Virus record (IMG/VR): IMGVR_UViG_3300043499_000073
DNA from: a virus
Length of the DNA: 48,440 bases
Reading direction: 5' to 3' (one strand)
The stretch's first letter is position 1. Every line of letters starts with the position of its first letter. Positions 3,305-48,440 of the stretch are shown here, piece after piece. Position numbers and translations under genes: made by a program. The notes beneath the pieces were generated by a model. The model made no database searches. It was not told the origin of the DNA and worked only from the letters and a program-made list of their open reading frames with translations.

Positions 3305-4872
3305 CCTTGCAGGCCCCTCGCCCGAAGATCTCGACCCTCACGCCGGCGCGTGTTTGCAAACAGCTCGCGGTAGGTGCCGGTCAAGACTTCCGGCTCGACC
3401 TTCCTGCCGCGGGTTCGCCCGTGCATCTTCGACAGTCCTAGCCCAACCAGGCTCAAAGTGTCGACCACGTCGTCGTTACTGCCGTGCGGAAACTTCAGGA
3501 TTTGGTCCTGCATCTCCGACCATGAACGGATGAATCCTGGGAAGTGTACCATCTTCATGCTGGTGCGGGCCTGGATCGCCTGCGCGCGCTGCTGCTTGTC
3601 GGCCGCGGGATTGATCGGATCGATCGCACAGAACGCCTGCTTCTCGGCCATGCGCCGGCGCAGGAAGGGACCGAGGCTCTTGGTGATGGCGCCACCCTCG
3701 GCCCACCAGAACATCGGCTTATATTTCTTCATCAGCACGATCATGCTCTCGACCGCCTGATGCGAATCCAGCCGGTCCCAGACCATGTCCGGCATGATCC
3801 AGATGTTATCCTTCTCGTCGACGCCGACGATCATCAGACAGGTCTTGTCGGCGGACTTGGCTACCGACACCGCGTGGTCCGACGCCCCATAGAATCTAAG
3901 GGTATGAAACGCCGGGACGTCATCCATTTTATTGTAGGTGACCAGGTCGCTATCCTTGAAGAAGGCCCCATCCTTTGGCCCTGGACGGCCCTGATACAGC
4001 GCAGCAAATCCACGCGGATCGGTGGCACGAATATCCTCCAGATATTGCTTGGTGAACCGCTCCGGCCATAACGCTTCGCCGGGTTTGCGGCCGAGCACGT
4101 CGTTGTCTTCGGCTAGCGCCGGCAGATCAATCTTGCGCCAGGCTTTGGCTTCTTCGACGTTGTAGTACGGATTAAGCGGGTCGATAAGCCGGCCAACGAG
4201 ATCGTCTTCGGTCCACCGGGTTTGGACGATGACGATAGTGCCAGTCGAATCCATGAGGCGAGTTCGGAGGACTTGATTGTACCACTGCCACAGCTTCTCT
4301 CGAACGATGACTGAGTCAGCTTCAGTTCGATCCTTAATAGGGTCATCCAATAGGATGCAGTGGCCACCGCGGCCGGTGATCGAGGAACCGCGTCCCACAG
4401 AGAAGACCACGCCATCACGGGTGGTTTGGACTCGGTTGACAGCATTTGCTCCAACCTTGATCTCGACATCGGGGAAGACCTGCTTGTATTCTGGTGTCTC
4501 CATGATGTCGCGGACGCGACGACCCAAGTCCCAGGAGTAATGCTCATTATATGTTGCGACGATAATGCTCCTGTCGGGATGGCGACCAACGTACCAGGCG
4601 GGGAACATCGCACTTGCCAGAGTAGTCTTGCCAAATCTGGGTCCGACATTGATCATCAATCTCCGGTAGTCGCCGCGCTCGACCTCTTCAAGCGAGCGAC
4701 CGATCATGCGGTGGAACGGTTGTGGCTTGTACAGCGACTGCCCGACATCGTCATCGTAGTTGGGATCAGGCATCATCAATTCTGTAAACGCTATCAAATC
4801 ATCGCGGGCGATGAGGATTGCGCGTTTACGCTTCAGCAGTTTCCGTTGGACGTCCTTTTCAGAGTCCGTCAT
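3298..4872 (-). CDS. terL: Terminase large subunit, 524 aa
   Basis: Walker A GPRFGKTT and Walker B-like HCILLDDP are present. The C-terminal nuclease-type half ends DKQQRAQAIQARTSMKMVHFP, as in large terminases. The gene lies directly upstream of the portal. Confidence 0.9.
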   Translation of the reverse strand: MTDSEKDVQRKLLKRKRAILIARDDLIAFTELMMPDPNYDDDVGQSLYKPQPFHRMIGRSLEEVERGDYRRLMINVGPRFGKTTLASAMFPAWYVGRHPDRSIIVATYNEHYSWDLGRRVRDIMETPEYKQVFPDVEIKVGANAVNRVQTTRDGVVFSVGRGSSITGRGGHCILLDDPIKDRTEADSVIVREKLWQWYNQVLRTRLMDSTGTIVIVQTRWTEDDLVGRLIDPLNPYYNVEEAKAWRKIDLPALAEDNDVLGRKPGEALWPERFTKQYLEDIRATDPRGFAALYQGRPGPKDGAFFKDSDLVTYNKMDDVPAFHTLRFYGASDHAVSVAKSADKTCLMIVGVDEKDNIWIMPDMVWDRLDSHQAVESMIVLMKKYKPMFWWAEGGAITKSLGPFLRRRMAEKQAFCAIDPINPAADKQQRAQAIQARTSMKMVHFPGFIRSWSEMQDQILKFPHGSNDDVVDTLSLVGLGLSKMHGRTRGRKVEPEVLTGTYRELFANTRRREGRDLRARGLQGW

Positions 4873-5288: not shown

Positions 5289-5465
5289 TTATCTCCTGAC
5301 TGTGCAGCGTTCCATCTGGATAAGGTTTCGCGCCAGTTGTCGGCAGGCGGTTTCGGCATTGATGGCATCGATCTCGTAGCGGGAATAAAACGGCGGTCGT
5401 TCGGTCACGGTGGTCACGATACAACCGGATAACAGGACGGCGAGCATGGCCAGGACGAGGATCAT
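5289..5465 (-). CDS. Small lipoprotein, 58 aa (o-spanin-like or Llp/Cor-like); below the ORF-track size cut-off
   Basis: Hand translation gives MILVLAMLAVLLSGCIVTTVTERPPFYSRYEIDAINAETACRQLARNLIQMERCTVRR. It has a hydrophobic leader ending in the lipobox L-S-G-C. Its ATG directly abuts the TAG of the upstream membrane-protein gene, and its TAA overlaps the RBS/ATG of the next gene. Confidence 0.65.
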   Translation of the reverse strand: MILVLAMLAVLLSGCIVTTVTERPPFYSRYEIDAINAETACRQLARNLIQMERCTVRR

Positions 5466-5669
5466 CTAGAGCCTCATTGGTGTCACCACACCCAACAGGC
5501 CGGCGATGATGTAGACGATGATCAACACCACGATGACGGTGATCAGCACTGACACCACAGTTCTAAACTGCGGCGGCATTGGCACCATGGGCAACAGGGC
5601 TTGCACCGCCCACAGGATGACGCCGAGCACCACCAGCAGCAGGACGATCGAGATCAGCGTACCGATCAT
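5466..5669 (-). CDS. Small membrane protein with two hydrophobic helices (holin-like), 67 aa
   Basis: Almost entirely hydrophobic: MIGTLISIVLLLVVLGVILWAV and VVSVLITVIVVLIIVYIIAGLLGVV are separated by PMVPMPPQFR. It is followed without a gap by the lipoprotein ORF. Confidence 0.6.
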   Translation of the reverse strand: MIGTLISIVLLLVVLGVILWAVQALLPMVPMPPQFRTVVSVLITVIVVLIIVYIIAGLLGVVTPMRL

Positions 5670-16345: not shown

Positions 16346-16593
16346 CAGCCCCAACTAACAAAAAATTTGCCACGCAGCATTGCGGCTGCCGGCGCCCGAG
16401 CGACTCGGCCCCGCCGGGGGGCGGTTAGCAGTAGGTCATTGGTATTACTACGCTTTCGCCGCTTGATTGACCGCGGCGCGCGCGGCGCGCGGCCTACCAT
16501 CTATCTGTGTATCAGATGCTATCGGCCAGCTAACGTATTGATTTTATTAGCTTTCGGTTTTTCCGCCAGCACCATTGGGATGCAGTTGGGATG

Positions 16594-16851: not shown

Positions 16852-17104
16852 TGCGCTTTGCTTCCCAATTGCGCCTTTGCGCTTGCATCATATTCCCACC
16901 ATGCCAGCGACAACATGGAACGCCACGCATTGCTAGCTGGCCACACGGGCGCCCGCTATGGCGCGCGATCGCCACACACCGCATGCGATTCGCATAATTG
17001 GGCTGTATCGCGTGCTTGCGCATTGCTGCTTTCCAAGCCGCGTTTCCCCATTGCGGCTTGCGCTTTAAATTATTTTTCAAATTATTTGTGTTTTGCTCTT
17101 GCAT
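16742..17104 (-). CDS. Cys/HGG-motif protein, 120 aa
   Basis: RCVAIARHSGRPCGQLAMRGVPCCRWHGG matches the C-x-A...G-x-x-C...G-x-x-C-R-x-HGG motif seen in many proteobacterial phage and plasmid proteins. The true 3' end is uncertain because of the overlap. Confidence 0.5.
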   Translation of the reverse strand: MQEQNTNNLKNNLKRKPQWGNAAWKAAMRKHAIQPNYANRMRCVAIARHSGRPCGQLAMRGVPCCRWHGGNMMQAQRRNWEAKRNANETAVNRASQQAKRRFKQSSHSKDNSPRSSAKRA

Positions 17105-17126
17105 TATGTCCCGATCGGGATATGTT
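17099..17126 (+). promoter_or_regulatory. Candidate sigma70-type promoter (TTGCAT, 16-nt spacer, TATGTT) whose spacer holds the 12-bp palindrome TCCCGATCGGGA (17109-17120)
   Basis: Hexamers and palindrome were read directly. The site lies in the 59-bp divergent gap between 17104(-) and 17164(+). Confidence 0.35.
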
Positions 17127-17163
17127 GCTAATCACTGAAACGAACCTAACAGGAAACGCCAAC

Positions 17164-17814
17164 ATGCTGATTAAAGACGCGATCGCGATCGCCGGACCAT
17201 TAGGCTACCCATCAAAAATGCCCGGCACAAGCTATGGCATCAGCGCCAAAGCTTGCATCACCGGCGCCAAATTGAATCTAGTTGAGGGTTCAACATGCCA
17301 TGGATGCTATGCGCTTAAAGGCAATTACATCTATCCAAGCGTAAAGATGGCGCACGAAAAGCGTATCGCCGGCATTGCTCATGAGCAATGGGTTAACGCA
17401 ATGGTGGTGCTGCTAAAGGCTGCACACAAGCCACGCAAAGTAGGTTTGCCGTTGTCGGCCCATCATCGCTGGCATGATAGTGGCGACTTGCAATCAGAGA
17501 CTCATCTGGCCCGCATTTGTGAAGTAGCAGCACAGACTCCAGAATTGTCACACTGGCTTCCCACGCGCGAAATTGGAATCCTGTCCCGTTTCATCAAAAA
17601 CGGCGGCAAGGTTCCGGCGAATCTGACAATTCGCGTTAGTGCAACAATGGTGGATGGCGCCGCAACAAAGGCGTGGCCGATTACATCCACAGTGCATCAG
17701 CACGAAACCGCGCGCGGTCACGTATGCCCGGCGCCCGAGCAGGATAACAATTGCGGCGCATGCCGTGCATGCTGGTCACAGGATATCCCTAACGTTTCCT
17801 ACCATAAGCATTGA
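17164..17814 (+). CDS. Conserved Cys-rich phage protein, GP88-like, 216 aa
   Basis: The ATG at 17164 follows AGGAAACGCCAAC. GYPSKMPGTSYGISAKACITG...STCHGCYALKGNYIYPSV...HHRWHDSGDL...NCGACRACW resembles the gene-product-88 family pattern (recalled from memory). Confidence 0.55.
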   Translation: MLIKDAIAIAGPLGYPSKMPGTSYGISAKACITGAKLNLVEGSTCHGCYALKGNYIYPSVKMAHEKRIAGIAHEQWVNAMVVLLKAAHKPRKVGLPLSAHHRWHDSGDLQSETHLARICEVAAQTPELSHWLPTREIGILSRFIKNGGKVPANLTIRVSATMVDGAATKAWPITSTVHQHETARGHVCPAPEQDNNCGACRACWSQDIPNVSYHKH

Positions 17815-17822
17815 TTGCAGTG

Positions 17823-17852
17823 CATGCCGCGCGGACTAATCCGCGCGGCATG
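17823..17852 (+). terminator. Perfect 13-bp GC-rich hairpin CATGCCGCGCGGA-CTAA-TCCGCGCGGCATG after the GP88-like gene; no U tract
   Basis: Arms are exact reverse complements with a 4-nt loop. The hairpin starts 9 nt after the stop codon. Confidence 0.35.
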
Positions 17853-17888
17853 AGCGGCCATCATGCCGAAAACAGAAAAGGATCGAAC

Positions 17889-18083
17889 ATGAAAACGCCA
17901 ACACCTATCGACGCGCTAGAAGTGCGCATTGCGGCCAATATTACATCCAGCCGTGAATTAAACCACGGCCGCGTGCAGTGGTTTATTGAGGCAAAGGGCT
18001 TTGCCCATGCCGGACATGGTGCCACCGCGGCCGCGGCCGCGCACGATTTTCTAATCCGTAATCACCTGGAATCGGAGGGTTAA
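17889..18083 (+). CDS. Hypothetical 64-aa protein
   Basis: The ATG at 17889 is preceded by AAAAGGATCGAAC. The longer track form starts inside the hairpin region. Confidence 0.55.
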   Translation: MKTPTPIDALEVRIAANITSSRELNHGRVQWFIEAKGFAHAGHGATAAAAAHDFLIRNHLESEG

Positions 18084-18275
18084 ATGCGCACAATCAAAAT
18101 CGCACAAGCTTTCCCGCATTGGGCAGCATCGTTCGAACCCGGAAACCCATGGACAATGCCGGCGGAAGGCTACCTGCCGTTACCCTATGCGGTGTTCAAA
18201 ACCTCATGGCCACAGCTGCAGAAAAAGCTAGCCAAACAATACCCGGGCTGTGTGCTCGAGCCCATGGCCAAGTAA
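18084..18275 (+). CDS. Hypothetical 63-aa protein
   Basis: Track ORF. Its ATG immediately follows the upstream TAA. Confidence 0.5.
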   Translation: MRTIKIAQAFPHWAASFEPGNPWTMPAEGYLPLPYAVFKTSWPQLQKKLAKQYPGCVLEPMAK

Positions 18276-18311
18276 CTGGCGATTTTTTCCGAAAACATGA
18301 AAGGACAGAAT

Positions 18312-18593
18312 ATGAAACGCACCCCACGGCCAGGCACCAAAGCTTGGAAAGTGTTTATTGCGAACGCCATGGCCAAGGCGCCGGCCAATCGCACGCCGCA
18401 GGAAGTGGTAGCGATACGTAAGGAAACCACAGGCAGCGTAATGCTAACTGAGGTCGACCGCTTTGCCGCGGCACGCGAACTAGGTAAACGCGCGGCCGCA
18501 GTAGGCTACCCCGCAACCGATAATCCATTCGCCACGCCGGCCATGCAAGCCGCATGGGAAACCGCACGTCTTGAAGCCCTGAAAGGCAACTAA
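18312..18593 (+). CDS. Hypothetical 93-aa protein, possibly Rmf/CrpP-like
   Basis: AAAGGACAGAAT precedes the ATG at 18312. The segment [24 protein letters not shown] loosely resembles the GY...NP[FY]...W..G core of Rmf/CrpP-type small proteins. Confidence 0.45.
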
Positions 18594-18594
18594 C

Positions 18595-18954
18595 ATGAAA
18601 CTAAAACAACCGCCGGCCATTCGCTACATAGTCCGCGACAAGGCCACCCAAGGCTGCGACTTCCTGATGTGGGGCGACAATGACCCCGCCGCGGCAAAAT
18701 ACACCCTGGACCAGGCCCTGGCCGATAGCCTCGACGTCGAGCTGGTCACCATGCCAGCCGACGATATGGACGAGCACACGCGGCGCCTAATCGAAGGCGA
18801 GCAACCCTGGATGATTCGCTACTTCAACGCCGATGATGTGCCGGCGGACTGTCACCCTGATTTTTTCGCAACGCAATCCGCAGCATTAGCTGAAGCACCG
18901 CGGTTCATGGCCACCCTCAATTGGGCCACCCGGTTCGAGGTATACCGATCATGA
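18595..18954 (+). CDS. Hypothetical 119-aa protein
   Basis: Track ORF, starting 2 nt after the upstream stop. Confidence 0.6.
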
Positions 18955-19250
18955 GCCTGTCAGACACAGCCAAGGGCGCCCTCGCGGGCGCCTACGCTTC
19001 CCGCGGGCGTCACCGCGGCCAGCTGCTAGCCCGTTGCCCCAAATCGCACACGCTCGCAGCCGCGGCCTGGCAGGGTGCCATGCTGGTATGCAACCCGTAT
19101 CAAGTATCGATCGGCGCCGTGTTGTTCATGACCGCAGAGCAGCGCGCCATACTCGAGGAGGTGCGCGCCCACTTCGAAACCCTGCCGCGCGAGTACCAGG
19201 TGCTCGCCCAGCGCGATCGCGAAGCCCTCGAACGGCTCGGAGTATGGTGA
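18951..19250 (+). CDS. Hypothetical 99-aa protein
   Basis: ATGA overlap with the upstream stop at 18951-18954. Translation starts [13 protein letters not shown]. Confidence 0.55.
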
Positions 19251-19627
19251 TGGCTAAATATTGTAAATTGGCAGTGGACCGTGAAATTAGAAAAACCGAC
19301 GCCACTGCGGACGAGGCCAGCAAAATCCACCGCCTATTATCCGGCCGGCATGAGCAAAGGCCGCAGCCGAAACCGCTGGCGGAAAAATCCGCCAGCAGGC
19401 CAGGGGGTAAAATCGGCCGGCGGGCTAAGCCCGCCATGTCCAAGGATAGGTTCCTGGCTGGGATTGCCGCGCTCGGCCACAACGTCAACACCGCCAACCA
19501 ACTATTGGGCATTGGCCGGTCGACCATCTATCGGATGGCCAGCGGCCAGGCTGCAGTGCCACCCGTGATCGCCCGCCTGATGGACATGTACGAGCGGCAC
19601 GGGATCCCGCCGGAGCACCAGCCATGA
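19250..19627 (+). CDS. Helix-turn-helix DNA-binding protein, 125 aa
   Basis: TGATG overlap start, with GGAG 8 nt upstream. The C-terminal NTANQLLGIGRSTIYRMASGQ is a classic HTH. The gene lies directly upstream of the iteron array. Confidence 0.6.
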   Translation: MAKYCKLAVDREIRKTDATADEASKIHRLLSGRHEQRPQPKPLAEKSASRPGGKIGRRAKPAMSKDRFLAGIAALGHNVNTANQLLGIGRSTIYRMASGQAAVPPVIARLMDMYERHGIPPEHQP

Positions 19628-19746
19628 GCCTGCTCGGTATCATCCTCGGCGTAGTCAATTATGAGAACGCCGGCGGCATCGAGGCTGCCCTGTCTGCGGT
19701 CGCGGTCATAGTCTTGATTGCACTCTGCCGCACGGAAGGGGGTTAG
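19624..19746 (+). CDS. Possible 40-aa hydrophobic peptide (below track cut-off)
   Basis: ATGA overlap with the HTH gene stop. Hand translation: MSLLGIILGVVNYENAGGIEAALSAVAVIVLIALCRTEGG. Confidence 0.3.
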   Translation: MSLLGIILGVVNYENAGGIEAALSAVAVIVLIALCRTEGG

Positions 19747-19758
19747 CCGGCCGGAGGC

Positions 19759-20027
19759 TATGGACCCTATGGACCCTAGTTGGGGGGGTAACAACAGATA
19801 TATAAAAAGATGTTTTATATGAATCCTTTTAAATATAGGGTCCATAAGGTCCACACTTGGGCGTTATGCGTATGAAATCAATCGTTTACTTATGGCCCGG
19901 ACTATGGCCCGGAAGGCTACTATGGACCCCCACTTTAGGGTCCATAGGATCATTTTCATAGTGTTTTGCCACATTTCACCCGTTGTGCCACCCCTATGGA
20001 CCCTGAAATTCATTTTAGGGGTCCACA
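19759..20027. repeat. Iteron array: 11 copies (both orientations) of TATGGACCC and variants around an AT-rich core; candidate origin of replication or packaging/regulatory site
   Basis: Forward copies at 19759, 19768, 19891 (TATGGCCCG), 19903 (TATGGCCCG), 19921 and 19995. Reverse copies at 19838, 19847 (AGGTCCACA), 19938 and 20019 (GGGTCCACA). The AT-rich stretch is 19791-19837. This is the largest non-coding gap in the genome. Confidence 0.7.
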
Positions 20028-21473
20028 CTATTCGGTATCGTTTTTGACTGCCCGCAGCACCGTCTGGATGTCGTCGATTGGACCCCATTTGGCTGCATGC
20101 TCACGCCGCCCGGTCTCGTTCAACGCATCGGCCGCGGCCGCCCGGCTGCGGAAGCAGTACAGGGTGTAGCGCCGCTTGCTGATCAGGATCTTCGCTTTAC
20201 CCCTGCCGCTCGATAGTTTCACTGGCGTACAAAACGTGGCGAAGGCGCCGGCCAGCTGCCCCTGCCAGGTTGTGTCGCGCCGGCCGATCCGCTCGCCGTC
20301 GCCATTGACGTGCGTGTCGATCTCCCGCTCGAGCGCCGGCTTGGTGAACACCAACCCTCGCTCGTCATCCTCGGCGTAGTCGGTCAGCAGGTGCTCGACA
20401 TCGTTGAGGGCGAGGTCGGCCATCTCGTCCTTTTCCTCGGTATGTAGTGGCCGGAACATATCGAACTGGGAGAGGTCGCTAGTCTGCTCCAGGTAGGTAG
20501 CCAGCGCAGCGATGTTGGCCGGCTTGTTCATCCACGCATCAAGCTTGTCGGCTTCCTCCTTGGTCATCGGCCGGCCGTTGCGCAGCACCGAGATCCGCCG
20601 ATCGTTAGCGGGAATGGCCGCGGCATTGATGTGGTTGGTGAATACCATCAGCGAGTTGAACGACATCGCGTCGAACGCTTGCAGGCGTTTGACTTTGAAC
20701 GTGCGCCGCCGCGGCGCCGGGTCGATACAGTTCTTCAGCGCCGTGTACACACTGCGCTTTTCGCCGGATCGATAGGCGGTCGGCGAGGTGTGCGCCTCGT
20801 CGACAATGGTCAGCACGCTGTATGCCTGCCAGTCCGTATACACCGCCTGCGACGAGGTGCCGGTGATGATGCTGAAGTCCTCGAACTTGCAGTAGGTCTC
20901 GCCCAGTAGCTTGGCGCATATCTTGCCAAACATGCCGCGGCCGACGCCGAAGGTGTCATTGGCCACATGCCACGGCGAGGTGCCGGGGATCTCCGGGTGC
21001 AGCCACTTATGTGCCAGCCAGTCCAGCTGCCAGTCGCGCTGTACAGCATCAGGCAGGAACCGATGCATGAAGTCCTCGAACGGCGCGATATCGCCAGTGC
21101 CGTCGTCGACATGGACCGGCCTGCGGTAGATATTCTTGAACACTTCGCCATCTTCTATGTAGGTCGGGAAGTTCTTGTCCGGCCGCATCCGCACGCCGGC
21201 GATGCTCTCGCGCCGCGGATGCATCTGCCAGGCCGTAGTCGCCGAGATCTTCTTCGGCTTGCCACTCTGCTGCGGCTGCAGCTCAAACCAGGAGGCGTAC
21301 TCGGTCTCGAACGCTTTGAGGCCCATGCTGCAGTAGGCGCTCGGCTCGTACAGCATGATCACCCGATCGGCCCGGGAATCAAAGCCGTGCGTCCGCACCA
21401 GCCACTCGATCTTGTCCTTGATCGGGTCGGTCTCTTTCGGCTTGGCCGGCATCGGCTTGGCAAACGTCACCAT
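20028..21473 (-). CDS. SF3-type (D5/P4-like) replicative helicase/NTPase, 481 aa
   Basis: The ATG at 21473 (MVTFAKPMPAK) lies 2 nt after the upstream stop. Walker A-like GVGRGMFGK and Walker B LTIVDEA are present. It follows the Prim-Pol gene. Confidence 0.65.
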   Translation of the reverse strand: MVTFAKPMPAKPKETDPIKDKIEWLVRTHGFDSRADRVIMLYEPSAYCSMGLKAFETEYASWFELQPQQSGKPKKISATTAWQMHPRRESIAGVRMRPDKNFPTYIEDGEVFKNIYRRPVHVDDGTGDIAPFEDFMHRFLPDAVQRDWQLDWLAHKWLHPEIPGTSPWHVANDTFGVGRGMFGKICAKLLGETYCKFEDFSIITGTSSQAVYTDWQAYSVLTIVDEAHTSPTAYRSGEKRSVYTALKNCIDPAPRRRTFKVKRLQAFDAMSFNSLMVFTNHINAAAIPANDRRISVLRNGRPMTKEEADKLDAWMNKPANIAALATYLEQTSDLSQFDMFRPLHTEEKDEMADLALNDVEHLLTDYAEDDERGLVFTKPALEREIDTHVNGDGERIGRRDTTWQGQLAGAFATFCTPVKLSSGRGKAKILISKRRYTLYCFRSRAAAADALNETGRREHAAKWGPIDDIQTVLRAVKNDTE

Positions 21474-21475
21474 GA

Positions 21476-22447
21476 TCACCCCTCCCAGGATTGCTTGAAG
21501 TCCTGCGCCACCTCGAACAGTTGCTGCTGCAGTTCGCGATCCTCTGCCGGCGACAGCGATTCCCAACGATGTGACACGCCGGTCTTGGTATCCCACAGTG
21601 TGAGCCCGGCGCCGCCGGAGTGATTGACCAGCACCCGATCGCGGGTCTTGGATGCCTTATCCCAGATGTTGGCGTAGCCTTTGATCCGCGTCACACCGGC
21701 GCGCTTCTCCAGCTCGGACAATTTGATATGTTCGCCATCTGACAGCACCATCACGTCATCTGGTTTGAGATCATACACCCGATCGCCGGGCAGATGCGCG
21801 TGCTCGGTTTTAATCTGCTCGAGCCCGAGGTCGACCATCACCTGCTCGCACTCGCCAATCATCGAAGGGATGTCGATCTCGGGAAACCATGGCAATGATT
21901 CCAGCGGCGCTTCGAGGATTGAGCGTCCCTGGTAGCCGTAGATACGACCTGGTGAGTGATAGCCATGTACCGCGACATACCGTTTGTCGTTGCCGGTGAA
22001 GTACTCGACCAGGTGCGGTTTCTCTTCCTTGGATTTAAACCGTGCTGTCCAGCGCCGCTTGCGGGCGGTAGCGCACTGGCCGATCAGCGCCAGTGTTGTG
22101 CTGCCGGAGGTCCGCCGCAGGCACTGCGCCATGAAGTCCGGCCAGCGTTGTGCCAGACAGCGCATCAGCGCCTGCCGCACATCCAAATCACGCACGTCGA
22201 GGTCGATGATGAAACAACTCGACCCAAACATGCGTATGCCGGCGGTTTTGCCGCTCCACCGCTCGATCGCGGCGTCGTCATTGGGTTGGCTAGGCCAGCC
22301 GCGGAATGGCCCGTCGCGGCCGCGCAGTGGGATCACATCATAGCCGTTGTCGCGGATTTTGCGCCATATCTTGCGGTATTCATGCGCTGGCTTCGGCTGC
22401 AGCGGTATCGCTTGCGCCGTCTGGCCGGGATGGTATTGATTGCTCAC
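21476..22447 (-). CDS. Archaeo-eukaryotic-type primase (bifunctional Prim-Pol N-terminal domain), ~323 aa
   Basis: NGYDVIPLRGRDGPFRGWP...IERWSGKTAGIRMF...CFIIDLDVRD matches the Prim-Pol N-terminal pattern. I prefer the GTG at 22447, preceded by AGAGGAGCTAAACC, over the track start at 22501. Confidence 0.65.
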   Translation of the reverse strand: MSNQYHPGQTAQAIPLQPKPAHEYRKIWRKIRDNGYDVIPLRGRDGPFRGWPSQPNDDAAIERWSGKTAGIRMFGSSCFIIDLDVRDLDVRQALMRCLAQRWPDFMAQCLRRTSGSTTLALIGQCATARKRRWTARFKSKEEKPHLVEYFTGNDKRYVAVHGYHSPGRIYGYQGRSILEAPLESLPWFPEIDIPSMIGECEQVMVDLGLEQIKTEHAHLPGDRVYDLKPDDVMVLSDGEHIKLSELEKRAGVTRIKGYANIWDKASKTRDRVLVNHSGGAGLTLWDTKTGVSHRWESLSPAEDRELQQQLFEVAQDFKQSWEG

Positions 22448-22504
22448 TGGTTTAGCTCCTCTGGGGTTGCACTGGTCACCTAGGGATGGGTGGGACTGCA
22501 CTTA

Positions 22505-24992: not shown

Positions 24993-25027
24993 CGGGGGGT
25001 GGCTGAAAACCACCCCCCGGTTTGTGG
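24993..25027 (+). terminator. Hairpin CGGGGGGTGG-CTGAAAA-CCACCCCCCG followed by GTTTGTGG (weak intrinsic terminator or attenuator before the polymerase gene)
   Basis: 10-bp perfect stem and 7-nt loop, beginning 10 nt after the TAA at 24981-24983. Confidence 0.4.
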
Positions 25028-25063
25028 ACACCTCTTCCCTTCCATCCCGGGGAATGCCCTGCC

Positions 25064-27226
25064 ATGCCGCCGCGCACCTTCGATTCCGATAAAATCTGCT
25101 GGTTCGACTTCGAAACGAGGTCGGGCGAGGATCTCCAGAAAGCCGGCGCCACCCGCTACGCTTGCGATGATGATGCCGCGGCGATCATCCTGACCTACGC
25201 GATCGGCCACGGGCCGGTGCGGCTGATCACGGCGCCGCTTGCGGCGGACTGGGCCTTGTCCTGGCACCACCTGCCGCTGGATTTTACTGAGTTCTATTAT
25301 CGGGTTGAGGCCAGTCCGGCGCACGGCACCTTTGCCGCGTTCAATGCCGGGTTTGACCGAAACGTATGGAATTTTGCGTTGCGCGATGCGCCGCAGCTGT
25401 TCCCCGACATGTGCATCGACCCCTCGGTGCAGGCCACCGCGGCCGGCCTGCCGCCGGACCTGGCCGGCGCCTGCAAGGCCAGCGGATCCACTGCCAAGGT
25501 CGAAGACGGTGGCATCTATATCAAGTTGTTCTGCATGCCGGATTCGACAGCTACGCCGCAGAGCCACCCGGCGGAATGGGCGGCGTTTTGCGCCTACGCG
25601 ATCGGCGACATCGAGGCGATGCGCAGTCTGTTCCTGCGGACCCGGCAGCTGCCGCTGCGCGAATGGGAAGAATACTGGACCGCTGAAGCCATCAATGACC
25701 GCGGCATTGGCGTCGACATCAAGTTCGCCAGGAGGGCCGACCGGCTCGCCGGCACTGCCAAGACCCGCGCCGGCAACGAGCTGCGCGAGATCACCGGCGG
25801 CGCCGTCGCCACCGTCGGCCAGGTCAAGCAGCTGACCCAATGGCTGCTGCATCAGCTGCCGGACGAAGGCGTCGACATGCTGACCAAGCGGGAGGAAGAG
25901 GAGTCCGACGACGGCACCATCATCCGCCCGGCCAAGTACAGCCTGACCCGGTCGCGGATCGAGAAGCTGATCCCATACTGTCAGGCGATCGGCCACCACA
26001 AGGCGCTGCGCGCCCTCCAGATCCGTTTGTATGGCGGGTCGACCACACCGGCCAAGTATTCAAAGATTCTCGCTCAGGAGGTGAATGGCGCGGTTTTCGG
26101 CCAGTACGTTTTCAATGGTGCGCCGCAAACCGGCCGGTTCTCCTCCCGCGGCGTGCAGATCCAGAACCTGGCGCGGTCGTTCCTCACCTACGAGCACGAA
26201 GCGATCGAGGCGATCCTCAACGGCGCCGACTATGACGAGCTGGAGCGGCTCGGCGACGACACGCCTGTGGTGCGTAAATTGGCGTTGCTGATTCGGCCCA
26301 CATTCGTTCCCCAGGGAACGAATCAGTTCGTGGTCAGCGACTTCGCACAGATTGAAGCGCGAATATTGCCCTGGCTGGCCGGTCCACAGTCCGAGGGCGC
26401 CCAGCGGCGGTTGAACATCTTTCGCGAGGTCGACGACAACCCCAAGCTGCCGGACCTCTACACCCGTACGGCGGGTGAAATCTCCGGCATCAAGCTACTC
26501 GGCGAGGTCACCAAGGCGCTGCGGCAGCGCGGCAAGGTCGCCGAGCTGGCGCTCGGCTTCGGCGGCGGCATCGGCGCGCTCGCTGCCATGGGTGCAAATT
26601 ACGGGCTTTATCTGCCGCGGCGTGAGGCCAGAGACCTGGTTCAGGCGTGGCGTGAGGCCAACGGCTGGTGTGTCAGGTTCTGGGGCGCCCACACCGACGA
26701 CGGCATCAGCAACGGCCTGTGGGGCGCCGCCAACCGGGCGTTGGATGAGCCCGGCATCGTCCAGACGGCCGGGCGGCTGGCCTACATCTACCTGCCGCAG
26801 ATCCTCAAAGGCACGCTGTACTGCCAGTTGCCGTCCGGCCGCTGCCTGGCTTACCGCGGCATCAAGTACGAGAAGGTCAAGGAGCTGGATGACGACGATA
26901 ACGTCATCGGCGAAACAACCCAGCTGCGGTTCTGGAAGGGTCATAGCCGGGCCAAGATTTGGCACGGCACGCTTTGTGAAAACGTCGTGCAGGCGACTGC
27001 CGCGGATATCCTGCGCGGCACGCTGGTGCGGCTCGAGCAGGCCGGCATGAACGTCAGGCTGCATTCCCATGACGAGGTGCTGATCGAGTGTGCTGAGGAG
27101 GATGTGCCGGGTGTGGCGAACTCGTTACGCTACATCATGCGCAAGGGCTTTCCTTGGACCGACGGCCTGCCGCTGATGTCGGAAGAGAACATCCAGTCCT
27201 ACTATTCGAAGTGGGAGGGCAAGTGA
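25064..27226 (+). CDS. Family A DNA polymerase with 3'-5' exonuclease domain, 720 aa
   Basis: Exonuclease motifs: WFDFETRS, FNAGFDRNVW, YAIGDIEAM. Polymerase motifs: A VVSDFAQIEARIL, B RQRGKVAELALGFGGG, C LHSHDEVLIEC. Confidence 0.9.
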   Translation: MPPRTFDSDKICWFDFETRSGEDLQKAGATRYACDDDAAAIILTYAIGHGPVRLITAPLAADWALSWHHLPLDFTEFYYRVEASPAHGTFAAFNAGFDRNVWNFALRDAPQLFPDMCIDPSVQATAAGLPPDLAGACKASGSTAKVEDGGIYIKLFCMPDSTATPQSHPAEWAAFCAYAIGDIEAMRSLFLRTRQLPLREWEEYWTAEAINDRGIGVDIKFARRADRLAGTAKTRAGNELREITGGAVATVGQVKQLTQWLLHQLPDEGVDMLTKREEEESDDGTIIRPAKYSLTRSRIEKLIPYCQAIGHHKALRALQIRLYGGSTTPAKYSKILAQEVNGAVFGQYVFNGAPQTGRFSSRGVQIQNLARSFLTYEHEAIEAILNGADYDELERLGDDTPVVRKLALLIRPTFVPQGTNQFVVSDFAQIEARILPWLAGPQSEGAQRRLNIFREVDDNPKLPDLYTRTAGEISGIKLLGEVTKALRQRGKVAELALGFGGGIGALAAMGANYGLYLPRREARDLVQAWREANGWCVRFWGAHTDDGISNGLWGAANRALDEPGIVQTAGRLAYIYLPQILKGTLYCQLPSGRCLAYRGIKYEKVKELDDDDNVIGETTQLRFWKGHSRAKIWHGTLCENVVQATAADILRGTLVRLEQAGMNVRLHSHDEVLIECAEEDVPGVANSLRYIMRKGFPWTDGLPLMSEENIQSYYSKWEGK

Positions 27227-27651
27227 TGGTCGCCTCAACCAAAGTCCGGCCGCTGCCACCGGGGGTACGCACGCGGCTCGATAAGATGCTGTTGCTGCTT
27301 GGTTCCGACAATGACGGCGAGCGGGCGGCGGCGTCCGGCATGATCACCAACCTGCTGCGCGAGCACGGCCTGGACTGGCATGACATCGTCGGCTCGATCG
27401 GCCAGCCTGCGGCGGCGGCGGCGCCAAAGCCGCCGCCACGCAACCCAGTGCCGATGCCTGTCGGTCATGAAATAACTGCGGATGAACTCAAGCGGTTGGT
27501 GCATTTGATTTTACGTAGTCCTCTCAATAAGCGGGCGCGGGAGTTCCTGGCCGGCATGATGGACCGTGCCAACATCTACGACCTGGTTTTTTTATCCGAC
27601 AAGCAATGGATTTGGCTGCGTGACTTAGCGCGGCGAGCGGGGGCGATATGA
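27226..27651 (+). CDS. Hypothetical 141-aa protein, DUF2786-like N-terminus
   Basis: TGATG overlap with the polymerase stop, with GGGAGGG upstream. LDKMLLLLGSDNDGERAAASGMITNLLREHGLDW resembles the DUF2786 helix pattern. Confidence 0.55.
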   Translation: MVASTKVRPLPPGVRTRLDKMLLLLGSDNDGERAAASGMITNLLREHGLDWHDIVGSIGQPAAAAAPKPPPRNPVPMPVGHEITADELKRLVHLILRSPLNKRAREFLAGMMDRANIYDLVFLSDKQWIWLRDLARRAGAI

Positions 27652-28379
27652 AGCATGTCATAGCACTATCTGGCGGCAAGGATTCCACCGCTATGGCGCT
27701 GCGGCTGAAGGAGCTGCACCCGCACACCGACTACACCTACGTCTGCACGCCGACCGGCGACGAGCTGCCGGAGATGTTCGAGCACTGGCGATCGCTCGGC
27801 GATCGCCTCGGCAAGAAGATTCTGCCGGTTATGCACAGCACTGGGCTTAAAGGTGTGATCCGCAAAGAGCAGATGCTGCCGAATTTCCGCGCCAGGTTCT
27901 GTACGCGGATCCTAAAGATCGAGCCGTACCGGCGCTGGCTGCAAGCTAACACGCCGTGCGTATCCTACGTCGGGCTCCGTGCCGACGAAGCGGGCCGGGC
28001 CGGCGGCGCCTACGCCGACATTGCCGGCGTCGAGATGCGCTTTCCTCTGCGCGAGTGGGGCTGGACCGAGCGGCATGTGTGGACGTACCTGGCTGATAAC
28101 CAGGTACAGATCCCGCCGCGTACCGACTGTGCGCGTTGTTACCACCAGCGGATTGGCGAGTGGTGGCAGCTGTGGAAGGAATTTCCCGAGCTGTGGGCCG
28201 ATGCCGAGGCCGATGAAGAGGAACTCAAGGCCACCTACCGCACGCCCGGCCGCGATACCTGGCCGACCGCATTGAAGGATCTACGCGCCGTATTCGAAGG
28301 CGGCCGGTTGCCACGCACGGTGAAGGACACTGCTGATGGCCTACGTAACGTCGGCGCCTGCCGGGTGTGTACGCTATGA
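27648..28379 (+). CDS. PP-loop ATP pyrophosphatase, PAPS-reductase family, 243 aa
   Basis: The N-terminal HVIALSGGKDSTAMAL is the SGGKDS PP-loop. Two C-terminal Cys pairs are present, CARCYH and CRVCTL. Confidence 0.8.
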   Translation: MKHVIALSGGKDSTAMALRLKELHPHTDYTYVCTPTGDELPEMFEHWRSLGDRLGKKILPVMHSTGLKGVIRKEQMLPNFRARFCTRILKIEPYRRWLQANTPCVSYVGLRADEAGRAGGAYADIAGVEMRFPLREWGWTERHVWTYLADNQVQIPPRTDCARCYHQRIGEWWQLWKEFPELWADAEADEEELKATYRTPGRDTWPTALKDLRAVFEGGRLPRTVKDTADGLRNVGACRVCTL

Positions 28380-28654
28380 GCACACAAGACGACGCTCCAG
28401 GCGAACGGGCGCGGGTCTACAGCAAGATCGCGCCGATCATCATGGAGTTCTACCGCGAGTACACCGGCGCGACATTCCACATGGAAGACCTGCGCCGCTA
28501 TGTCATTAGCCGCGCCCCGGAGATTGCACCGGACAGTCCGAGTCGAATCCTGCGCGAGCTGCGACTGGAGAACCGGCTTAACTACGTGGTGCTGAGCCGG
28601 TACGAGTCGCTGTACCAGTTCCGACGCCGCGTCAAACCGCCTTTGGATGTGTGA
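28376..28654 (+). CDS. Hypothetical 92-aa protein, possible winged-helix
   Basis: ATGA overlap with the PP-loop gene stop. EDLRRYVISRAPEIAPDSPSRILRELRLENRLNYV looks wHTH-like, which is weak evidence. Confidence 0.5.
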   Translation: MSTQDDAPGERARVYSKIAPIIMEFYREYTGATFHMEDLRRYVISRAPEIAPDSPSRILRELRLENRLNYVVLSRYESLYQFRRRVKPPLDV

Positions 28655-30059
28655 CATGCGTCAGAAATCGGAGATGCGGCCGTACCAGGACCGGATCGCC
28701 AGTGCGCTCTACGAGAACGATGAGAAGATCGCGGTCGCTCGGCCCGGCGGCGGCAAGACCGTTGCGGCGCTGACCGCGATCGGCGAGTTGATCCGCGACA
28801 AGCATATTCGCCACGCGCTGGTGATCGCGCCCAAGCGTGTGGCCCGCATGGTATGGCCGGACGAGATTGCGCTATGGGCGCATACCGCCGGGCTGTCTTA
28901 CCAGGTGCTCACCGGCACGCCGCAGCAGCGGGCGATCGGCCTGGCCGAGGCACACGCTGGTCTCTACGACATCACCATCGTCGGCATCGACATTGTCGAG
29001 TGGCTGGTCGACACCCTGGTTAAGCTGCCGGACGATTCGCGGCTGTTCGATCTCTTGGTGATCGACGAGGTGTCCCGTCTGCGCAATCCCTCCGGTGTGC
29101 GCGCCCGGCGGCTACTCCGATACGCCAAGCGGTGGCGCATGGTTTGGGGTCTGACCGGCACCCTGCGGCCGTCCGGCGCCGAGGATCTGTTTATGCCGGC
29201 CACGGTGGTAACCCGCGCCAAGCTTTGGGGTAAGTCGTTCTACCGTTGGCGTAAGGATCGCTTCTACCCGCTTGATTACAATGGCTACACATGGGCGCCG
29301 CTGCCGGGTGCGGAGGAACGCATCAATGCCGAGCTGGCACCGCTTTGCGTCACCCTGCGCGACGACGAGCTGCCGCAGCTGCCGGAACTGTCGATCATCT
29401 TCGACCGGGTCGAGCTGCCGGCCGCCGCCCGCAAGCAGTACCAGGACATGGAGGAGAAGCTGATGCTGTGGGATGGCGGCGGCGAGGCTATCCTGGCTGC
29501 CTCGGCCGCGGTCGCTACTGGCAAGCTCGCGCAGATTGCCAACGGTTTCGTCTACGATGACGGTGTGACCCATCGGATCCACGGCGAGAAGGAGCAGTGG
29601 GCACAAGACATCATTGACGACGCGGACGGGTCGGTGCTGTTCATTTACGAATATCGCCAGGACTTGGAAATGCTGCGTGTGCTGCTCGGCCAGGATCTTC
29701 CTTACCTCGGTGACGGGGTCACCGACGCGGCATCTGATCATAATATCACCCAATGGAATGCGGGCATGCTGCCGTTCATGGCAATGCATCCCGCCAGTGG
29801 CGGACACGGATTGAATCTACAGCACGGCGGCTCAGACATGGCCTGGATCTGCCCGACCTGGTCTCCTGAACTGTGGGAGCAAACGATCGCTCGCCTGCAT
29901 CGTTCCGGGCAGACTAAACCAGTCATCGTCCGTGTCTGTACGGCAGCGGACACAGTGGACCAGATGAAGATCGATCGGGTGTACCGGAAAATGACGGCGC
30001 AGCAGGCGTTCGAAGCCTACCTGCGGCGCCATCAAGTAGAGGGATTCGTCAACGCCTAG
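28647..30059 (+). CDS. SNF2-family (SF2) helicase/translocase, ~470 aa
   Basis: Motifs: I ARPGGGKT, Ia LVIAPKRV, II LLVIDEVSRL, III GLTGTL, V SGGHGLNLQ, VI RLHRSGQTKPV. The start is either 28647 or 28656. Confidence 0.85.
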   Translation: MCDMRQKSEMRPYQDRIASALYENDEKIAVARPGGGKTVAALTAIGELIRDKHIRHALVIAPKRVARMVWPDEIALWAHTAGLSYQVLTGTPQQRAIGLAEAHAGLYDITIVGIDIVEWLVDTLVKLPDDSRLFDLLVIDEVSRLRNPSGVRARRLLRYAKRWRMVWGLTGTLRPSGAEDLFMPATVVTRAKLWGKSFYRWRKDRFYPLDYNGYTWAPLPGAEERINAELAPLCVTLRDDELPQLPELSIIFDRVELPAAARKQYQDMEEKLMLWDGGGEAILAASAAVATGKLAQIANGFVYDDGVTHRIHGEKEQWAQDIIDDADGSVLFIYEYRQDLEMLRVLLGQDLPYLGDGVTDAASDHNITQWNAGMLPFMAMHPASGGHGLNLQHGGSDMAWICPTWSPELWEQTIARLHRSGQTKPVIVRVCTAADTVDQMKIDRVYRKMTAQQAFEAYLRRHQVEGFVNA

Positions 30060-47927: not shown

Positions 47928-48440
47928 TTAGAGGCGCGGCGCTCCCTCGCGAGCAAATCTGACTGCTTCCAGCAGTGACGTAGGCTCGGGTGCCACACCA
48001 GCGGTTCTTCCGGTGCTGCTCGGGACGCGCGATGTGGGCATTCGCTGGGGTTGGGACCAAGCCTTGTACTGCTCGTTGACACGGCGAAGCGCCTCTTGGG
48101 CGATCTGGATGCCGTTCTCGGGCGACTTGGGTGGACCATATTCTCCGACGAGTGCCATCATCGTGGACTGAACAGCGGCTTTTTTCGCCGCATAGCGAGG
48201 GTCCGATCGCACTATTCCCAGTTCCCATTTATTGACGGCTATCGCCACCTTCTCGGCCAGGATCTCCCGCTGCCGTTGCTGCTGCTGGTTCTGCGACAAC
48301 TGCTGGTGCTGCTGCAACGCGGCCTGTTGTCGGACCGCATTGTTCTGCGCCATCGCCTTGTCCATGCGCTCTCGCGAGTACATGGCCGCGGCTTGTGTCG
48401 TCATATGCCCCTGCTGCACTGACTGCTGCAGATCAGGGGG
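47928..48440 (-). CDS. Scaffolding-like protein, C-terminal part (same gene as 1..652; bases 48314-48440 duplicate 1-127)
   Basis: The track ORF 47928..48419 begins at an internal GTG, but the frame stays open to the window edge and joins 652..1. Contains a Gln-rich QQHQQLSQNQQQQRQ stretch. Confidence 0.8.
   Translation of the reverse strand, partial: PPDLQQSVQQGHMTTQAAAMYSRERMDKAMAQNNAVRQQAALQQHQQLSQNQQQQRQREILAEKVAIAVNKWELGIVRSDPRYAAKKAAVQSTMMALVGEYGPPKSPENGIQIAQEALRRVNEQYKAWSQPQRMPTSRVPSSTGRTAGVAPEPTSLLEAVRFAREGAPRL
48314..48440. repeat. Terminal duplication, copy 2 (identical to 1-127)
   Basis: Direct comparison, 127/127 identical. Confidence 0.95.

Follow-up and report, generated by a model that had tools for sequence, protein, structure and literature searches.

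Repeats and genes at the locus

The window analyzed here is one strand of the IMG/VR virus record IMGVR_UViG_3300043499_000073 (48,440 nt). Within it, an array of short repeats filled a 280-nt gap at 19748-20027, flanked by convergent genes and starting at the helicase stop codon. The gap lay beside the helicase and primase genes and after a gene for an HTH protein, as described in the original prediction. The features considered below were as follows.

3298-4872: large terminase gene, 15 kb from the array, as is the portal gene
19250-19627, + strand: HTH_31 protein (Pfam HTH_31), 125 aa, 120 nt from the gap
19624-19747, + strand: hydrophobic ORF, 40 aa, whose end bounds the gap
19759-19776, + strand: distal tandem doublet, TATGGACCC TATGGACCC, abutting and exact, separated from the helicase gene by the AT-rich core
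19790-19836: AT-rich core and putative DNA unwinding element, 47 nt, 83% AT, with a small palindrome (ATATAAAA/TTTTATAT) inside it
19838-19855, - strand: proximal tandem doublet, GGGTCCATA exact, then AGGTCCACA with two mismatches
19847-19855, - strand: degenerate iteron TGTGGACCT, two mismatches
19876-19888, + strand: exact match (AATCAATCGTTTA) to the IHF consensus WATCAANNNNTTR, past the proximal doublet and before the direct-repeat block
19891-19911, + strand: direct 8-mer pair TATGGCCC(G) with 12-nt spacing, from repeat analysis; TATGGCCCG variants start at 19891 and 19903
19921-19946: inverted pair, both iterons exact, 8-nt spacer
19995-20027: inverted pair, TATGGACCC exact and GGGTCCACA with one mismatch, 15-nt spacer
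20019-20027, - strand: iteron TGTGGACCC, one mismatch, abutting the helicase stop codon (20028-20030)
20028-21473, - strand: SF3 helicase, D5/NrS-1-like (DUF5906), 481 aa
20077-20085: further degenerate copy ATTGGACCC, within the helicase ORF
21476-22501, - strand: Prim-Pol-like (AEP) primase, 341-aa ORF directly upstream of the helicase, with its true start probably near 22444
25022-27226: phage family-A DNA polymerase

Iterons. Six exact copies of the 9-mer (TATGGACCC/GGGTCCATA) occurred in the window, at 19759(+), 19768(+), 19838(-), 19921(+), 19938(-), and 19995(+). All six fell inside 245 nt (19759-20003), compared with 0.15 copies expected in the whole window, and none of 100 shuffles held six or more. 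Outside this single cluster, copies of TATGGACCC at one mismatch were no more frequent than chance, and the density of the 7-mer core GGGTCCA in the gap was ~219 times that in the remaining sequence of the window. The cluster, its coordinates, and the rarity of the 9-mer elsewhere were as first described, and so were the two exact abutting forward copies, the AT-rich stretch of 47 nt, and the two TATGGCCCG variants. The count of eleven copies was too high: 19759-20027 held ten sites of 8-9 nt, six of them exact. Two abutting reverse copies and two inverted pairs had also been claimed. All were present, but within them the copy at 19847 carried two mismatches and that at 20019 carried one, while 19838 and the 19921/19938 pair were exact. 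Eight of the ten copies lay on the helicase side of the AT-rich core and two on the far side, so the core was not central. Together the facing doublets made up an inverted repeat of 18 nt, its arms 94% complementary and 57 nt apart.

AT-rich core and other cis signals. Both the AT-richest 40-nt stretch (start 19798, 88% AT) and the AT-richest 100-nt stretch (start 19793, 69% AT) of the whole sequence began in the core, in a window with an overall AT content of 38%. The IHF consensus matched twice in the window (0.52 expected). At the place equivalent to 19876-19888 the match was perfect in one related lineage (L009) and partial in four others (L001, L006, L010, and L011), and we treat the site as a lead to possible DNA bending. 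DnaA boxes (TTATCCACA, at most one mismatch) were absent from 19000-20500 and numbered five in the whole window, near the 4.9 expected by chance. We rejected a DnaA-dependent (oriC-like) origin given the lack of such boxes near the unwinding element. Cumulative GC skew, which had been suggested as a check, had a local maximum at 16820 and a local minimum at 22964, with no inflection at the array; we consider such a result uninformative in a phage of 48 kb rather than a refutation. Rfam and tRNA scans of the window returned nothing.

The helicase and the Prim-Pol-like primase

Helicase. The 481-aa protein belongs to the D5-like SF3 family (DUF5906, or the C-terminal region of NrS-1) by both sequence and fold match. 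It scored 22.3 bits against Pfam DUF5906, under the 27.6 cut-off, and precomputed PF19263 matches are on record for most of its homologues. It also matched phrog_1156 and, in a PDB profile search, the helicase region of NrS-1 (E 5.5e-9); up to an E value of 1 that search returned only NrS-1 chains and one chance match. The AF2 model (pLDDT 85.7) had NrS-1 6k9c as its best fold match (Foldseek, 50 matches listed; E 1e-16, TM 0.53-0.60). Next among the 50 listed were poxvirus D5/E5 and ASFV PrimPol, with 8wh0 and 8apl at E 1e-9 to 1e-7, and identity to all of these folds, NrS-1 included, was 10-13%. The SaPI Rep chain appeared neither in the PDB sequence search nor among the 50 fold matches listed, and the helicase and SaPI Rep share the SF3 class only, without homology by these searches. 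The C-terminal domain of the helicase (about residues 336-468) had the modelled topology alpha-beta-alpha-alpha-beta-beta (AF2). Searched alone, its top fold matches were all winged-helix proteins, none of them significant (best E 0.2), and we call the domain winged-helix-like with that qualification.

Primase. The Prim-Pol ORF matched the N-terminal part of phrog_1156 and was collinear with the N-terminal 315 aa of a fused homologue, P0053, which bears PF09250 (E 4e-11). Judged by sequence, the Prim-Pol gene is the split-off N-terminal part of a primase-helicase. In relatives the protein was 320-326 aa long. Nothing useful came from NCBIfam searches of the replication proteins or from querying PDB sequences with Prim-Pol.

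Layout and iteron type among relatives

Nucleotide searches of the locus against GenBank phages, in near and distant modes, gave no match, and the phage has no close relative in culture. The sole exact IMG/VR match to the 18-mer doublet (L002) fell within coding sequence of an unrelated contig rich in AT and was judged to be chance. No helicase relative was found among 185,579 bacterial and archaeal genomes, and there was thus no sign of a prophage form.

We read eight related lineages in detail (L001, L003, L004, L006, L009, L010, L011, and L013; helicase identity 40-96%). All eight had a gap of 260-360 nt past the helicase stop, which ran from a block of direct repeats through a flipped tandem doublet and an AT-rich core to copies in the opposite orientation. 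This layout was common to every relative with a split helicase gene that we fetched. The distal doublet had an equivalent in relatives, either a doublet or a single copy and each with its own sequence; L006, L009, L010, and L013 had a single copy only on the distal side. Relatives carried GGGCCATAG..GGGCCATAGGTAAC at the place of the direct 8-mer pair, and the inverted pair straight after the stop codon also occurred in L004, L006, and L013. The 40-aa ORF that bounds the gap was kept as well, with genes of 39-49 aa at the same position in L003, L004, L009, L011, and L013, and was 70% identical to the L009 copy.

The AT-rich core of the eight detailed lineages reached 82-90% AT in a 40-nt window and lay 118-202 nt past the helicase stop. 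Across relatives overall the range was 65-90% AT, with at least 70% in 26 of 28 IMG/VR loci. Segments were tested automatically for an AT-richest core with inverted copies on its flanks; 25/28 IMG/VR downstream segments passed vs 14/335 control segments, and the full doublet-AT-doublet pattern was recognizable by eye at about 16 of the 28 loci. The layout rule is not universal across the wider family, since the fused-gene relative L012 had no gap after its gene and an Octadecabacter phage had only 68 nt.

The iterons themselves were lineage-specific 7-10-mers (GGGCCAT, TGGGCTCA, GGGACAC, GGGTCTG, and others). Their cores were GGGTCCA, AGGCCAC, GGGCCAT, GGGCCAC, GGGTCAG, GGGACAC, GGGTCTG, and GGGCTCA. 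Each core was enriched 41-219-fold in its own gap and absent from the gaps of other lineages, with the exception of the related GGCCA types.

In about eight lineages, judged by eye, iteron type appeared to follow the C-terminal domain of the helicase, and not its N-terminal domain, Prim-Pol, or the HTH protein. The C-terminal domain grouped L001, L004, and L006 (77-79%), all with GGCCA-type iterons. It also placed L009 together with L010 (75%), the iterons of these two being GGGTCA and GGGACA in flipped orientation. The helicase N-terminal domain instead grouped the window with L001 and L009. Prim-Pol was 92-93% identical among these same three despite their different iterons, and we rejected it as the specificity factor on that ground. 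The HTH motif of the 125-aa protein was invariant or nearly so in seven lineages whose iterons differ completely. The HTH protein had been put forward as a binder of the repeats, and this near-invariance led us to set that candidate aside. Between the window and L001, flanking genes had 90-100% nucleotide identity, the helicase gene from about 21120 downwards was 70-78% identical, and the gap could not be aligned.

A candidate replication origin and its alternatives

We propose, at a probability of about 0.74, that the 280-nt gap is the phage replication origin, the cis-acting part of a pri-rep-ori module of the iteron type with a self-loading initiator-helicase. The original prediction took iterons plus an unwinding element as the mark of an origin, and the comparative evidence favors that reading: the same layout recurs 3' of the helicase gene in relatives, each lineage has its own repeats, and repeat type follows the helicase C-terminal domain. 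From this we infer helicase binding, melting, helicase loading, and origin activity at the gap. The D5/NrS-1-like SF3 helicase would act as the self-loading initiator, with its C-terminal winged-helix-like domain recognizing the GGGTCCATA iterons. Helicase molecules occupying the block of direct repeats and both gene-proximal inverted pairs would raise the local protein concentration, and the opposed tandem doublets would position two helicase assemblies, one at either flank of the 47-nt core. The core would then melt, possibly with help from bending at the IHF-like site or from the 18-bp inverted repeat being extruded, after which the neighboring Prim-Pol would prime and the family-A DNA polymerase would extend.

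The closest precedent for such a design comes from SaPIs. Their origins lie immediately downstream of rep and consist of 6-12 iterons with a central AT-rich region (PMC9371898), flanked on each side by at least two iterons in opposed orientation (PMC9371898). The C-terminal winged-helix domain of SaPI Rep binds the iterons, and origin specificity resides in that domain and varies between related elements (PMC9371898). The window resembles this SaPI/PICI pri-rep-ori arrangement in several respects. The origin candidate sits immediately 3' of the helicase ORF, as it does in the relatives examined in detail, its ten sites are within the 6-12 range, and its AT core has an opposed iteron doublet on each side. 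The primase gene is adjacent (separate in the window, separate or fused in SaPI), and iteron type appears to follow the helicase C-terminal domain. In contrast to SaPI, the iterons here are 8-10 nt rather than penta- or hexanucleotides, and eight of the ten window copies are on the helicase side rather than half on each side. The window is also no satellite but a complete 48-kb phage that encodes a family-A DNA polymerase of its own, and the nearest solved relatives of its helicase, among the matches listed, are NrS-1 and poxvirus D5/E5.

The alpha protein of P4 is a multifunctional primase-helicase that binds origin repeats via a C-terminal winged-helix domain, unwinds, and primes (PMC4234260). 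The recognition proposed here, of origin repeats by the helicase C-terminal domain, would be analogous. Unlike the Toprim-type primase of P4, the window primase is AEP/Prim-Pol-like and encoded by a separate gene. P4 further needs two separated cis regions, ori and crr, compared with the one cluster in the window. Given the separate AEP-like primase and the single cluster, we rejected membership in the P4 ori/crr type.

In iteron origins of the lambda O/ori, pPS10, RK2, and R6K kind, iterons occur together with an AT-rich unwinding element and a cognate initiator, and IHF-type bending sites are common. Their initiator is not the helicase, host DnaB is recruited, and in lambda the iterons are part of the O gene; the window array, in contrast, is intergenic and without DnaA boxes, and its candidate initiator is itself an SF3 helicase. 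NrS-1, poxvirus D5/E5, and ASFV PrimPol are the closest solved folds to the window helicase among the matches listed, and we know of no iteron-type origin beside any of their genes. To our knowledge no origin has been described for phage D5/NrS-1-like primase-helicases. The design is familiar rather than conceptually new, and is found here in a new phage group.

The reading nearest to an iteron origin is a structure-specific origin of the pRN1 type, in which what counts is a large stem-loop or cruciform, with a stem of 18 bp and an AT-rich loop of 57 nt, and not the iteron sequence. The pRN1 origin also lies 3' of its primase-helicase gene and has no iteron structure according to its authors (PMC4234260). 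Origins of this type have a conserved stem-loop of ~100 nt. As a single-stranded DNA fold, 19750-19865 had a dG of -21.5 kcal/mol (z -4.28), and the dimensions of its stem-loop are near those of pRN1, with a 21-nt stem and 58-nt loop (PMC4234260). Such stem-loops sit 3' of AEP-primase/SF3-helicase/winged-helix genes, including that of Bordetella phage BIP-1 (PMC4234260), and the window shares with pRN1 ORF904/BIP-1 a sequence poorly conserved between relatives and a structure that is kept (PMC4234260). However, the window motif is reiterated ten times and extends well beyond the stem, with six further occurrences outside the stem arms in direct and inverted orientation. The L001 arms have unequal periods (9 and 8 nt) and pair imperfectly, and the single distal copy in L006, L009, L010, and L013 argues further against a required stem. 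pRN1 also differs in its archaeal host and in ORF904 being a fused protein. We consider a purely structure-specific site unlikely, and it would be a variant of the origin hypothesis rather than a true alternative to it.

There is little reason to prefer a transcriptional element, one that serves the convergent operons as a bidirectional terminator and/or as a set of operators that the neighboring HTH regulator binds, over the replication origin. The gap does lie between convergent genes with the HTH_31 gene 120 nt off, and the inverted pair at 19920-19947, followed by ATTTTC, scored as an intrinsic-terminator-like hairpin on the + strand in a terminator scan. A terminator, though, needs neither ten 9-mer copies nor doublets that face each other across the AT-richest segment of the genome, and the terminator-like pair was not conserved, with direct repeats at its place in L004. 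Binding by the HTH regulator fits poorly with a motif that is (nearly) invariant while the lineages' repeats differ completely, and no sigma-70-like promoter was found in the array region. Some of the hairpins may possibly double as terminators alongside an origin function.

Packaging was the second role suggested for the array: a packaging signal (pac or cos) or genome terminus, with the repeats as terminase recognition sites as at T7-like genome ends. Packaging sites can indeed carry arrays of short repeats, and the GenBank record of cyanophage Mel-JY33 ends inside its equivalent array. The same array is internal to the record of Nsp-JY18, which is closely related to Mel-JY33, and the ~48-kb contigs of relatives opened at varied points and never at the array locus. 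The window was itself a circular assembly whose 127-nt k-mer overlap sits away from the array, and the large terminase and portal genes are 15 kb distant. The array is also tied to the helicase gene and appears to follow its C-terminal domain, and we consider packaging very unlikely. Least probable of all is another DNA-transaction site (attP arm sites, a parS partition centromere, or a site for telomere or dimer resolution). Such sites, too, can have direct and inverted repeats about an AT-rich center, but no integrase, ParA/ParB, recombinase, or protelomerase was found among the ORFs scanned, which were the larger ones except several of 160-290 aa, the window has no tRNA gene, the genome search gave no sign of a prophage, and throughout the family the array goes with the helicase gene.

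If the gap is the replication origin, a clade of uncultured ~48-kb soil phages gains an origin and an initiator that can be tested, and so, more broadly, do phage D5/NrS-1-like primase-helicases. Dozens of natural pairs of helicase and iterons come from the family survey; rules of DNA recognition could be worked out from them, they could yield orthogonal origin/initiator sets for engineering, and the family rule could be reused as an origin predictor in genome annotation.

Beyond the origin itself, the helicase C-terminal domain and the iteron array may, tentatively and with the odds somewhat against it, form a single exchangeable specificity cassette that sorts co-circulating soil phages into mutually exclusive replication groups. 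Were this so, the clade would be a natural series of origin-specificity swaps, and the winged-helix/DNA code by which D5-like helicases recognize their sites could be read from it. Consistent with such a cassette, the N-terminal part of the helicase goes with its Prim-Pol partner and the C-terminal domain with the iterons, and the cassette is the fastest-diverging stretch in genomes that are otherwise 90-100% identical. The window lineage also appears to be mid-transition, with most of its sites carrying a one-base insertion (GGGCCA to GGGTCCA). Two sites of the L004/L006/L001 iteron form remain in the direct-repeat block of the window, the TATGGCCC(G) copies, which are without the extra base of the window's other copies.

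Array anatomy and gene neighbourhood

The window is a complete phage genome in a circular assembly, and no close relative was found among GenBank phages. Positions 1-127 are identical to 48314-48440, most likely as a k-mer overlap left by assembly of a circular contig, which would put the true genome length at ~48,313 nt and make the window ends arbitrary. Gene calls and family matches agree with the original prediction that the gap holding the array adjoins helicase/primase genes and an HTH gene.

Genes and iteron sites (window coordinates)
719-3304: portal gene, far from the array
3298-4872: large terminase gene, far from the array
46793-47911: major head protein gene, far from the array
19250-19627, plus: HTH_31 protein, 125 aa, left of the gap
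19624-19747, plus: conserved hydrophobic ORF, 40 aa, left border of the gap (19748-20027)
19759 and 19768, plus: exact iterons, TATGGACCC
19838, minus: exact iteron
19847-19855, minus: two-mismatch iteron
19891 and 19903: shorter-form iterons, TATGGCCC(G)
19921, plus, and 19938, minus: exact iterons
19995, plus: exact iteron
20019-20027, minus: one-mismatch iteron, TGTGGACCC
20028-21473, minus: D5-like SF3 helicase, 481 aa
21476-22501, minus: Prim-Pol-like ORF, 341 aa, directly upstream of the helicase gene

The right border of the gap is the stop codon of the helicase gene, whose true product length was set by comparison with relatives. The helicase had a weak Pfam match to DUF5906, matched the helicase part of phrog_1156, and hit the NrS-1 helicase region in a profile search of the PDB (E 5.5e-9). 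Its AlphaFold model was confident (pLDDT 85.7) and structurally closest to NrS-1 6k9c (E 1e-16), followed by poxvirus D5/E5 and ASFV PrimPol; the protein is a D5-like SF3 helicase. Since the 341-aa ORF matched the N-terminal region of phrog_1156 and aligns collinearly with the Prim-Pol portion of fused homologues, the two genes constitute a split primase-helicase. Beyond Prim-Pol, on the other strand, are a DUF2800 nuclease and a family-A DNA polymerase. Also in the replication module, a PAPS-reductase-domain gene, which may function in DNA modification, adjoins a phrog_62 helicase (27648-28379 and 28647-30059). The window contained no tRNA genes and no Rfam matches.

Counting both strands, the 48,440 nt of the window contain six exact copies of TATGGACCC (0.15 expected; no shuffle reached six), all within 19759-20003, and the GGGTCCA core is ~219 times as dense in the gap as in the rest of the window. 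Re-reading the sequence returned the same layout and the same confinement of the 9-mer as first described, but not the eleven copies claimed: ten sites lie in the interval, and the eleventh is a degenerate copy, ATTGGACCC, inside the adjoining ORF (20077-20085). The two copies at 19891-19911 retain the 8-mer TATGGCCC, as found in the iterons of lineages L004, L006, and L001 (metagenomic relatives); relative to this form, the remaining copies carry a one-base insertion, TATGGACCC. This mixture reflects either a specificity in transition or the presence of a second binding specificity.

The 47 nt between the facing doublets (19790-19836) hold the most AT-rich 40-nt (88%) and 100-nt (69%) stretches of the window, which is 38% AT overall, in keeping with the AT-rich stretch first noted there. 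Together the doublets make up an inverted repeat whose 18-nt arms are 94% complementary and 57 nt apart; as single-stranded DNA it folds far more stably than shuffled controls, with a dG of -21.5 kcal/mol (z -4.28). An exact IHF-consensus match lies at 19876-19888, one of 2 in the window (0.52 expected), and the L009 relative has a perfect one at the corresponding position. The other match of the window (16531-16543) is near 17057-17110, which ranks second in the genome for AT-richness (80% AT in 40 nt) and lies in a divergent intergenic region, probably a promoter region, upstream of a GP88-family gene. GC skew, proposed as a check, had no inflection at the array, which at a genome size of 48 kb speaks neither for nor against an origin.

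Conservation of the layout with changing iteron words

A protein search of metagenomes found 68 helicase homologues, and we fetched their loci. The gap of L003 is identical to that of the window at 279/280 bases, with 96% helicase identity. The other split-gene relatives fetched had a 260-360-nt gap after the helicase stop and one common layout.

Common layout, in helicase sense
1: two copies in inverted orientation at the stop codon
2: direct-repeat block of three or four copies
3: tandem doublet in flipped orientation
4: AT-rich core (40-nt AT content 82-90%), located 118-202 nt past the stop
5: return to the original orientation, with one to three copies

The iteron words were GGGTCCA (window, L003), AGGCCAC (L001), GGGCCAT (L004), GGGCCAC (L006), GGGCTCA (L013), GGGTCAG (L009), GGGACAC (L010), and GGGTCTG (L011). 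Each word was enriched 41-219-fold in its own gap and missing from the gaps of other lineages, except among the related GGCCA types.

In IMG/VR, a profile-based scan returned 28 loci. An automated test for opposite-orientation copies around the AT-richest 40-mer (at least 4 copies in total, at least 70% AT) was passed by 25/28 helicase-downstream segments, 14/335 control segments from the same loci, and 4/214 window tiles, one being the array itself; this is a lax test, and its passes include spurious ones. By eye, the full doublet-AT-doublet pattern was present in ~16/28 loci with its own word in each (e.g., GTGGACCAGTGGACCA, GTTGTCCACTGTCCAC, CTGCCACCGACTGCCACC, and GAGACCTGAGACC). The cultured cyanophages Mel-JY33 (Microcystis; L015 3946-4168) and Nsp-JY18 (Nostoc; L017 2946-3169), with a fused primase-helicase 29% identical, have inverted-orientation CCGGGTCC tandem doublets in a 222-nt gap that follows the gene, so isolates offer a testable equivalent. 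The gap after the gene is only 68 nt in an Octadecabacter phage and missing in the fused-gene relative L012, where GGGTCAC/GTGACCC-like words and a 67% AT patch (5385-5630) overlap both the end of the gene and the ORF called after it; this stretch might harbour an embedded origin.

Smaller features recur around the arrays. GC-rich CCGGCCGG-type palindromes lie behind the distal iterons in most relatives (window 19745-19758; L004 4760-4810; L009 4705-4730; L010 4700-4735; L011 4695-4725) and may be the converging operon's terminator or belong to the element. Three lineages conserve a AAAAAGTTCCATCG motif in the stretch that separates the direct-repeat block from the first inverted pair (L001 5665-5680; L004 4545-4560; L006 4525-4540), where the window carries AAAATGATCC. 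In two relatives, an extra ~130-aa gene on the helicase strand separates the array from the small hydrophobic ORF (L001 5944-6336, +; L009 4797-5183, +); this gene is absent from the window.

Candidate iteron reader and alternative functions

The most informative pair was the window and L001. Flanking genes are 90-100% identical in nucleotide sequence, the helicase gene drops to 70-78% from ~21120 to its stop, and the gap is not alignable. Protein identities to L001 were 93% for Prim-Pol, 94% for the HTH protein, 100% for the next protein, and 73% for the helicase; to L009 they were 92% for Prim-Pol and 59% for the helicase. Within the helicase, the window clusters with L001 and L009 by the N-terminal 125 residues (80-85%). 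In the C-terminal domain (CTD; residues 336-468), L001 instead groups with L004 and L006 (77-79%), the three GGCCA-type lineages, and L009 with L010 (75%), whose iterons, GGGTCA and GGGACA, are both flipped relative to the gene. The L011 CTD shares 20-31% identity with every other CTD, and L011 has yet another iteron. Iteron type therefore follows the CTD, and the family-wide series of matched CTD-iteron pairs is the most interesting by-product of the analysis. The modelled CTD, a putative winged-helix-like iteron reader, has a helix-strand-helix-helix-hairpin topology, and the top matches of a fold search were all winged-helix DNA binders (PadR, RTP, MarR, forkhead, ORC), none significant (best E 0.2). 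The helicase gene (20028-21473) is also a mosaic and divergence hotspot among L001, L003, L004, L006, L009, and L010; L003 is 100% identical to the window across 17140-19747 but 97.1% in the helicase. The different nearest relatives of the N- and C-terminal domains suggest recombination inside the gene.

The 125-aa HTH protein had been suggested as the binder. Its HTH motif is NTANQLLGIGRSTIYRMASG in the window, L001, and L009 alike and almost unchanged across the seven lineages compared despite their unrelated iterons, so this protein cannot set iteron specificity and was ruled out. The iteron binder is probably the helicase, judging from these sequence comparisons. The near-invariance of the HTH motif also disfavours an operator or terminator array, although the inverted pair at 19920-19947 is terminator-like on the plus strand and may double as a terminator. 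A packaging site, the other function first proposed, is disfavoured by the large terminase gene 15 kb away, the circular assembly, and relatives' contigs that opened elsewhere than the array. An attP, parS, or resolution site is opposed by the lack of a cognate enzyme among the larger window ORFs scanned (no integrase or ParA/ParB).

Origin model and known systems

The observed anatomy of the array, its conserved layout, and the iteron-CTD covariation make a phage replication origin a well-supported reading, and the comparative evidence thus bears out the origin originally predicted. The SF3 helicase would act as a self-loading initiator with its CTD on the iterons. Copies nearest the helicase gene would concentrate the helicase, the opposed doublets would seat two assemblies, one on either flank of the AT-rich core, the core would melt, and Prim-Pol would prime for extension by the phage polymerase. 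The IHF-consensus site at the array may contribute a bend. A consensus scan of the locus found no DnaA boxes, which fits independence from the host initiator.

SaPI origins lie immediately downstream of rep and have 6-12 iterons around an AT-rich centre, at least two on each side in opposite directions; the C-terminal winged-helix domain of Rep binds the iterons, and a primase is adjacent or fused (PMC9371898). The cis layout of the window matches almost point for point. However, its iterons are longer and asymmetric (8 on one side vs 2 on the other), it is a full phage, and homology of its helicase to SaPI Rep was not detected in a PDB sequence search or among the fold matches listed. In P4, the winged-helix domain of alpha binds the origin repeats (PMC4234260). 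The pRN1 origin, 3' of its primase-helicase gene, is a stem-loop whose stem of 21 nt and loop of 58 nt come very near the 18/57 of the window, and has no iterons as stated by its authors; Bordetella phage BIP-1 has similar stem-loops after its replication gene (PMC4234260). The element thus joins SaPI/P4 iteron logic with pRN1-like geometry, here in a D5/NrS-1-like helicase family. The array design belongs to a known kind, and its novelty is modest.
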